NCBI RefSeq assembly: GCF_045037415.1 | Contig: NZ_CP173438.1 | DNA from: Escherichia coli | Lineage (GTDB): Bacteria; Pseudomonadota; Gammaproteobacteria; Enterobacterales; Enterobacteriaceae | Strand: one strand, 5' to 3' | DNA length: 64,000 nucleotides | Shown here: positions 57,770 to 58,294 of the stretch, one piece after another | Position numbering within the stretch: position 1 is the stretch's first letter | How the letters are laid out: each line of letters begins with the position of its first letter | Notes under the pieces: generated by a model | The model's input: the letters and a program-made list of their open reading frames with translations, nothing else | What the model was told of the DNA's origin: nothing | Databases searched by the model: none | Position numbers and translations under genes: made by a program

Positions 57770-58294
57770 ATGGTCATTAATTACAAGCAGTTAAGAGAAA
57801 AACGGGAGCAGGTAAAGGAGAGCTTTCGCCGCAATGAAGATCTGACCCCGCTTGTACGCCTTGCCCAGGGCATTGTTGATGCTTATGAAATCTCGCTGGA
57901 GCTGCCATCACAGACCTGGACAGATAGCGACGGTAATCGCCAGCATTACGTTTCATGCGGACTGGAAGCAGCCGAAGGATTTCGCAGAATGCCTTTATCC
58001 CAGATCCCTGCCGCTACCCCCAAAGCACGGGGCAGCAATGATGAGCGAAAACTGACTTTTAGTATTGAAACGGTGGTTGACGACACACCTGGCGAAGTCG
58101 CGTTCGTGCACACTCCTGTTTCGATCGCAATGTATAACGATGAAATACAGGTTCGCGTTAATAATAATATCGTGCCACTTAAAGAAGGTAATTCACCCTA
58201 CACCACCGTTTGTGAAGCCATTCAATATTACGTTCTCTCTGAAATTGATAATCTCAAGCCTGACGGCACCCAGAAAATGGTTCAACTCTGGTAA
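57770..58294 (+). CDS. hypothetical protein (174 aa) between putative cos and portal gene
   Basis: ORF-track 57731..58294 trimmed to ATG with GGAGG 8 nt upstream; followed by hairpin terminator shared with portal gene. Confidence 0.6.
   Translation: MVINYKQLREKREQVKESFRRNEDLTPLVRLAQGIVDAYEISLELPSQTWTDSDGNRQHYVSCGLEAAEGFRRMPLSQIPAATPKARGSNDERKLTFSIETVVDDTPGEVAFVHTPVSIAMYNDEIQVRVNNNIVPLKEGNSPYTTVCEAIQYYVLSEIDNLKPDGTQKMVQLW

Follow-up and report, generated by a model that had tools for sequence, protein, structure and literature searches.

An optional, portal-linked gene of the PHROG 5091 family between the cos-type block and the portal gene of a P88-like Escherichia coli prophage

This study focused on a gene for a protein of 174 amino acids (aa) that lies between a conserved cos-type block and the portal gene of a P2-family prophage, in a stretch of 64,000 nt of Escherichia coli DNA (assembly GCF_045037415.1, contig NZ_CP173438.1) that is referred to below as the window. 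The gene belongs to PHROG 5091, a widespread, uncharacterised family of proteins of about 155–185 aa whose genes are nearly confined to prophages of proteobacteria, where they mostly stand singly at varied accessory sites. The gene is genuinely protein-coding and evolves under purifying selection; nearly identical phages may carry or lack it, and its inheritance follows the portal/terminase module, not the cargo of the hotspot next to it. With some reserve, it is best regarded as a dispensable, long-resident and self-contained single-gene moron that specifies a small, non-enzymatic binding protein, whose likeliest role would be in phage conflict or lysogenic conversion. The initial annotation of this DNA had drawn attention to an extra 174-aa gene between a putative cos site and the portal gene, and this was borne out by the open reading frame (ORF), by the selection acting upon it, and by its being intact in 35 of 37 copies from IMG/VR.

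The gene appears to be a compact unit, in which a weak sigma-70-type promoter, a strong ribosome-binding site, the ORF and a strong bidirectional terminator would be lodged between the cos-type block and the 3' end of the portal gene. In window coordinates, its parts are as follows.
57699..58340, no strand: DNA absent from empty-site relatives, spanning everything from the putative promoter through ribosome-binding site, gene and terminator to a 3' tail of the portal gene that has been replaced.
57711..57739, plus strand: putative sigma-70-type promoter of weak consensus, with TTGCCG (57711-57716), a 17-nt spacer and CAAAAT (57734-57739).
57758..57762, plus strand: GGAGG ribosome-binding site, from direct reading, 7 nt 5' of the ATG.
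57770..58294, plus strand: the 174-aa gene, a PHROG 5091 member, from its ORF and translation; RefSeq WP_000236495.1, annotated as a hypothetical protein.
58295..58326, no strand: bidirectional intrinsic terminator common to the 174-aa gene and the convergent portal gene, from folding and a terminator scan.

The ORF holds 174 codons and a stop codon, and the ATG at 57770 is taken as the true start because all homologues open with MVINY; a GTG further upstream (57731) is unsupported as a start, as the homologues begin with MVINY at the ATG. The GGAGG motif is invariant across 35 E. coli-type copies. The terminator hairpin (58300-58320) is followed by a run of six U residues and folds at -21.5 kcal/mol on the plus strand (z = -5.7), the minus-strand fold of the same region (-18.2 kcal/mol) is also terminator-like, and the stop codon of the portal gene (58309-58311, minus strand) sits in the hairpin loop. 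Both the GGAGG ribosome-binding site and the terminator that had been noted at the outset were confirmed in this way. Comparison of orthologs gave proportions of non-synonymous differences (pN) of 0.27-0.37 against saturated synonymous differences (pS), and dN/dS ratios of 0.12-0.2 where these were measurable, indicating purifying selection. Frameshifted or truncated copies are occasional (two of the 37 IMG/VR loci, L092 and L094, with proteins P0013 and P0014), and enterotoxigenic E. coli H10407 matches just 74% of the gene.

Upstream of the gene, the two hexamers of the putative promoter are invariant in the nine sequence variants found among 35 E. coli-type loci, with a variable spacer, and the Salmonella-type ortholog (60% identical) has kept TTGTCT-17-CAAAAT within otherwise diverged upstream DNA. 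The conservation of the hexamers, and the orientation of the gene against the late P–Q operon, suggest that it has its own transcription, probably also in the lysogen. No Ogr-type dyad (TGT-N12-ACA) was found upstream of the gene, which is uninformative because this pattern is not enriched in the window and does not mark the P/O late-promoter region. No credible RNA emerged when 57000-58400 was scanned against Rfam.

That the gene is optional is seen most directly by comparing filled and empty sites. In E. coli N58, which has an empty site, the DNA is identical up to 57698, where the portal stop codon abuts the conserved block. A filled site measures 1175 bp and an empty one 560 bp, a difference of 615 bp, and the last 11 codons of the portal gene, read off aligned DNA, specify SYALLDEKTAP here and PYALLDTQPTS at the empty site. 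Phages with 98–99% identical portals are among those with empty sites. When 57 E. coli loci were sampled at even spacing, this slot was seen in only three states: 37 loci were empty, 19 carried this gene and one carried a different insert. The gene was found in four of 11 distinct related phage records, and so, at this frequency and about 35% of E. coli loci, it is not a core gene of the P88-like (Xuanwuvirus) clade. The idea that it might prove to be a conserved core component with a known role was looked at and did not hold, the gene being absent from about 60% of the E. coli prophages with the same cos–Q block, including P88. The exact protein is nevertheless common, occurring on at least 1000 public E. 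coli contigs, including those of the pandemic sequence type 131 (ST131) lineage, and the Salmonella ortholog occurs on at least 1000 more; every database name for it is "hypothetical".

The different insert, represented by locus L008, was found in 31 genomes. Its protein is only about 20% identical to that of the window and yet belongs to the same family (hhalign 98%, E 6e-14; match to phrog_5091, E 3e-52), so that two very divergent alleles of PHROG 5091 are found in the same 330-bp interval, and nothing else is found there. This is the single unusual point about the slot. The two alleles occupy separate sub-positions, the window-type gene lying downstream, and the L008-type relative upstream, of a hairpin (57642-57670) that is conserved in empty and filled sites and forms their boundary.

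The 174-aa gene follows the portal gene in its inheritance. Among 40 gene-carrying loci, the gene keeps constant distances to the cos block and to the portal wherever the E. coli-type block is present, while the stretch from gpA to cos comes in at least 15 lengths, ranging from 1.1 to 3.6 kb. The particular cargo found in this window, which includes a DUF4760 protein, accompanies the gene in only five of these 40 loci. Portal and gene identities co-vary (100/97, 98.6/95, 74/60 and 69/56%), and the GC content of the gene (47–50%) is near that of the phage core (52–56%), with the adjacent cargo at 30–35%. Fixed spacing, co-divergence with the portal and near-core GC content together indicate an accessory gene that is portal-linked and long-resident, unlike hotspot cargo with its fast turnover. 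Trabulsiella has a 46% identical ortholog directly after gpA, on the opposite side of cos.

The surrounding region of the prophage contains the following features.
51406-54228, strand not stated: gpA, replication endonuclease; the 174-aa gene lies between gpA and the portal gene.
57244..57397, no strand: conserved cos-type core, with three TGCACAA repeats (57244-57275) and a G-rich 19-mer (57367-57385).
57642..57670, no strand: very stable hairpin without a U tract on either strand (-24.9 kcal/mol, z = -5.5).
58309..59355, minus strand: portal gene, gpQ homologue, from its ORF; RefSeq "phage portal protein"; convergent with the 174-aa gene.

Judged from its portal protein, which is 47% identical to P2 gpQ, and from its cos–Q DNA block, which matches those of P88, P884B11 and other Xuanwuvirus-type phages, the host element is a P88-like (Xuanwuvirus) P2-family prophage of E. 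coli and not P2 proper. In P2 itself, cosL (1-19), the terminator tQ (160-181) and the Q stop codon (187) leave only 167 bp between cosL and Q, all of it gene-free, and the initial annotation was correct in stating that P2 has essentially no gene at this position. The block at 57244-57397 is probably the terminase recognition and cos region. A sequence record, LR595891, begins at the position equivalent to 57289 of the window, and a similar core adjoins the portal gene in about 25 P2-like prophages of other enterobacterial genera, and also in locus L055. The match of the 19-mer to P2 cosL (13 of 19) is not statistically compelling and the P2 cos junction aligns poorly to the window; the gene is best described as lying between a conserved cos-type block and the Q homologue. 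A 42-codon ORF (57498-57626) is found in the conserved cos-proximal DNA and is annotated as a gene in some records. At L008 (5247-5957) this ORF runs on in frame into the PHROG 5091 member, and the annotation has a single protein of 236 aa, but the true start of the latter is likely to be an internal MSHFND, which has its own ribosome-binding site, AGAGGA.

The membership of the protein in PHROG 5091 was established with a hidden Markov model, which it matches over its full length (E 1.4e-67; residues 1-168 against profile positions 1-164 of 164), and the L008 allele and nine distant relatives match the same model (10 of 10 tested). A word-indexed search found relatives only in E. coli, Salmonella and Trabulsiella. 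With an exhaustive profile search the yield rose to 84 clusters at 50% identity, of which about 60 are full-length proteins (155–175 aa), and the relatives in AFDB are all uncharacterised and come from Enterobacterales, Pseudomonas, Halomonas, Aquitalea and Pandoraea. The matches of P0031 and P0086 involve repeated short stretches in long proteins and probably reflect repeat-motif similarity, not homology. When the distant members were compared to the phage collection by tblastn, the same four phages or nothing were returned. No Pfam match was found for the 174-aa protein and 22 family members, nor did the protein itself give an NCBIfam match, a PDB match or a convincing fold match. Designed helical repeat proteins appeared in a PDB sequence search with a narrow profile (E 5e-10) but were gone with a broader family profile, and so were set aside as compositional artefacts. 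A search of the literature on WP_000236495, phrog_5091 and Xuanwuvirus found no functional information.

An AlphaFold2 model of the protein (predicted local distance difference test 78, predicted template modelling score 0.72) has two N-terminal helices, a sheet of seven to eight strands and a C-terminal helix. The layout, with N-terminal helices, an antiparallel sheet and a packed C-terminal helix, is broadly like that of actin capping protein, the FP domain of PI31 and type III secretion chaperones, and a small size and an acidic isoelectric point are shared with alpha+beta dimerisation folds of the secretion-chaperone and capping-protein kind. The protein is hydrophilic, with an isoelectric point of 5.0, there is no membrane-spanning helix in the model, and the invariant columns of the family alignment are mostly hydrophobic or structural, with no conserved catalytic residues. 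The product would then be a small, soluble, mildly acidic alpha/beta protein, and since it has neither a transmembrane segment nor conserved catalytic residues its mode of action is most likely the binding of another protein. As to its role, a lysogenic-conversion or phage-conflict factor would be most probable, for example one that excludes other phages or elements or interferes with them.

The genomic contexts of PHROG 5091 members are varied.
Between the conserved cos-type block and the portal gene: the window, L055, L058 and L008.
Between a late antiterminator gene and the holin gene: L011-L015 and L098.
Between Rz and the terminase gene: L006 and L099.
12 bp after ogr: L016.
After gpA: L056.
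Inside a baseplate operon: L005.
The distant members thus occupy classic accessory-gene (moron) sites of unrelated prophages, and no partner gene recurs beside family members across these contexts. In two loci, the member P0026 (L101, 6001-6525; L102, 5010-5534) is a lone gene flanked by choline-sulfatase/OpuAC genes on one side and an epimerase gene on the other; it has no phage gene closer than 6 kb, and may be a remnant or a domesticated copy. HicA/HicB toxin-antitoxin pairs were seen near family members in four unrelated prophages (L016, 7001-8359; L056, 6001-7369; L098, 5242-6474; L099, 3681-6489), being adjacent in the first three and merely nearby in L099. A functional link to HicAB was considered and set aside, as the same HicAB type is found in three of 37 family-free P2-like portal loci and the association is not significant on this sample.

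The gene resembles the morons of lambdoid phages, a concept of Juhala and Hendrix. Like them, this is a single gene with its own terminator (the hairpin and U6) and a putative promoter, it is present in or precisely absent from close relatives, and members of its family sit in exactly the slots used by lambdoid morons, such as that between antiterminator Q and the lysis genes. Unlike them, its composition is not markedly foreign, and expression from the prophage is putative here. The cosL–Q position has also been used by other phages of this kind. Phage phiCTX carries the ctx toxin gene at this site, and 186-like prophages carry retrons next to cos. In phiRSY1, four ORFs (ORF1-4), one of them Vgr-like, lie between cosL and Q (Askora 2017, PMC5694545), and the same authors, citing Dodd & Egan 1996 and Nakayama 1999, relay a proposal that P2-like phages acquire foreign genes in this interval, a spot described as tolerating added genes with phage functions undisturbed. 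The 174-aa gene would be in the same topological position as the cargo of phiRSY1, phiCTX and the 186-related retron prophages; those phages, however, carry unrelated cargo, and here a single protein family uses the slot.

A number of observations weigh against the view of the gene as a moron with a conflict role in the lysogen. A scan for consensus promoters found no site of at least 9/12 upstream of the gene, and the TTGCCG-17-CAAAAT pair is an 8/12 match, below the threshold of the scan, while L058 is without the pair altogether. The description of the gene as well-expressed-looking was thus upheld for its ribosome-binding site and terminator but not for its promoter, where the conserved sigma-70-like pair is all that was found. 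In the lambdoid relatives the gene is co-oriented with the late genes, which also fits expression in the lytic phase. The GC content is nearly phage-like, and so is not the distinct composition that typifies freshly acquired morons. The protein matches no PADLOC model at E <= 0.01 and has no effector-like domain. Finally, its presence in 396 of 5426 complete E. coli genomes (the cos–Q block being present in 1145-1170) is a count inflated by clonal sampling of ST131.

It could be speculated further that PHROG 5091 as a whole is an unrecognised single-protein family of phage-conflict factors, acting in exclusion or counter-defence and having a fold unlike solved structures, and that P88-like phages have a dedicated slot into which divergent xenologous alleles are swapped, reflecting a polymorphism in specificity and not random cargo. 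This broader proposal is tentative and rather less likely true than false. Among the alternatives to a moron active in the lysogen, the one that survives best is a counter-defence protein, that is, a small inhibitor, produced in infection or lytic growth, that binds an immune sensor or effector of the host or of a prophage and so neutralises it. We consider this unlikely overall.

The initial annotation had also suggested that the cos-proximal left end is a second possible cargo site. Part of this stands, in that the gene is an extra, non-core, self-contained gene that P2 lacks; varied cargo was not seen, the site having just the three states described. The idea itself is not new, as both the cosL–Q position and the gpA–gpQ hotspot are already in the literature. 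By the definition of two reports (Rousset 2022; Vassallo 2022), the P2 hotspot comprises everything between gpA and gpQ, an interval that includes the 174-aa gene, and WP_000236495 is listed in Table S5 of the former; in the text consulted, neither report mentions anti-phage activity for this protein. Like the cargo of P2 hotspot #1 (old, tin and many defence systems), the gene lies inside gpA–gpQ and is variably present, but it is left of the cos block, on the opposite strand, inherited with the portal, near the core in GC content and without a PADLOC match. It therefore shares with hotspot cargo the location between gpA and portal, and neither a high turnover of unrelated genes nor homology to defence proteins.

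A stronger form of the suggestion, in which a general hotspot occupies the left end and many cargos, this gene among them, are interchangeable there, would account for the presence/absence polymorphism at the site and for a different gene of the L008 type within the same interval, and it would agree with the literature on cosL–Q pick-up sites and the four ORFs of phiRSY1. Against it, the L008 occupant turned out to be of the same family, only three length states occur among the 57 E. coli loci, and the occupant co-diverges with the portal with no turnover. Comparing the content of this position across P2-like prophages also went against a general hotspot. No family member was found within 6 kb of the portal gene in 37 P2-like loci from other species, and where the cos-type core was detectable in these (about 25 loci from other enterobacterial species and genera) it lay 220-390 bp from the portal with no gene between. 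A general hotspot is accordingly improbable.

A role in the virion, in packaging or at the portal, for example as a head-internal protein or one that modulates cos or the terminase, would explain why the family recurs beside portal and cos. This is slightly more doubtful still, since the gene is absent from inducible, plaque-forming relatives with 98–99% identical portal and terminase, including P88, it is convergent with the P–Q operon and not part of it, and other members are found after gpA, after ogr or at a chromosomal spot outside any prophage; the "tail" labels look to be derived from context. The last alternative, that the gene and the adjacent AT-rich cargo work together in a multi-gene system of which it would be the third part, is largely refuted and scarcely credible: although the exact protein is found together with WP_001068329 and WP_000193205 in about 164 of the 167 loci listed in Table S5 of Rousset 2022, this is due to one clone having been oversampled, IMG/VR and RefSeq loci pair the gene with at least 15 other configurations of cargo, with the DUF4760 cargo in only five of 40, and gene and cargo are split by the conserved cos block, on opposite strands and 15 points apart in GC.

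The cargo in the main gpA–cos hotspot of this prophage is a pair of AT-rich genes (55667-57046, minus strand; 30–35% GC), one specifying a 280-aa protein with multiple transmembrane segments (phrog_12528) that gives a weak PADLOC match to Csx27 (E 1e-5), and the other a 165-aa DUF4760 protein (phrog_2284). These two genes are a candidate defence pair, and appear in Table S5 of Rousset 2022 and not in its main text. Directly after the replication endonuclease gene are ParM-like and ParR-like plasmid-partition genes (54305-55583); according to Rousset 2022, modules of this type are carried by about a quarter of P2-like phages.

As to what the moron-like 174-aa gene means for these phages, it would be one more orphan moron if it has no role in exclusion or counter-defence. 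If it does have such a role, the PHROG 5091 protein would be a common, very compact and structurally novel player in the P2/P4 conflict landscape, and the gpA–gpQ hotspot would consist of two compartments, one to the right of cos in which cargo turns over fast, and one to its left, a slot that is linked to the portal and changes slowly.
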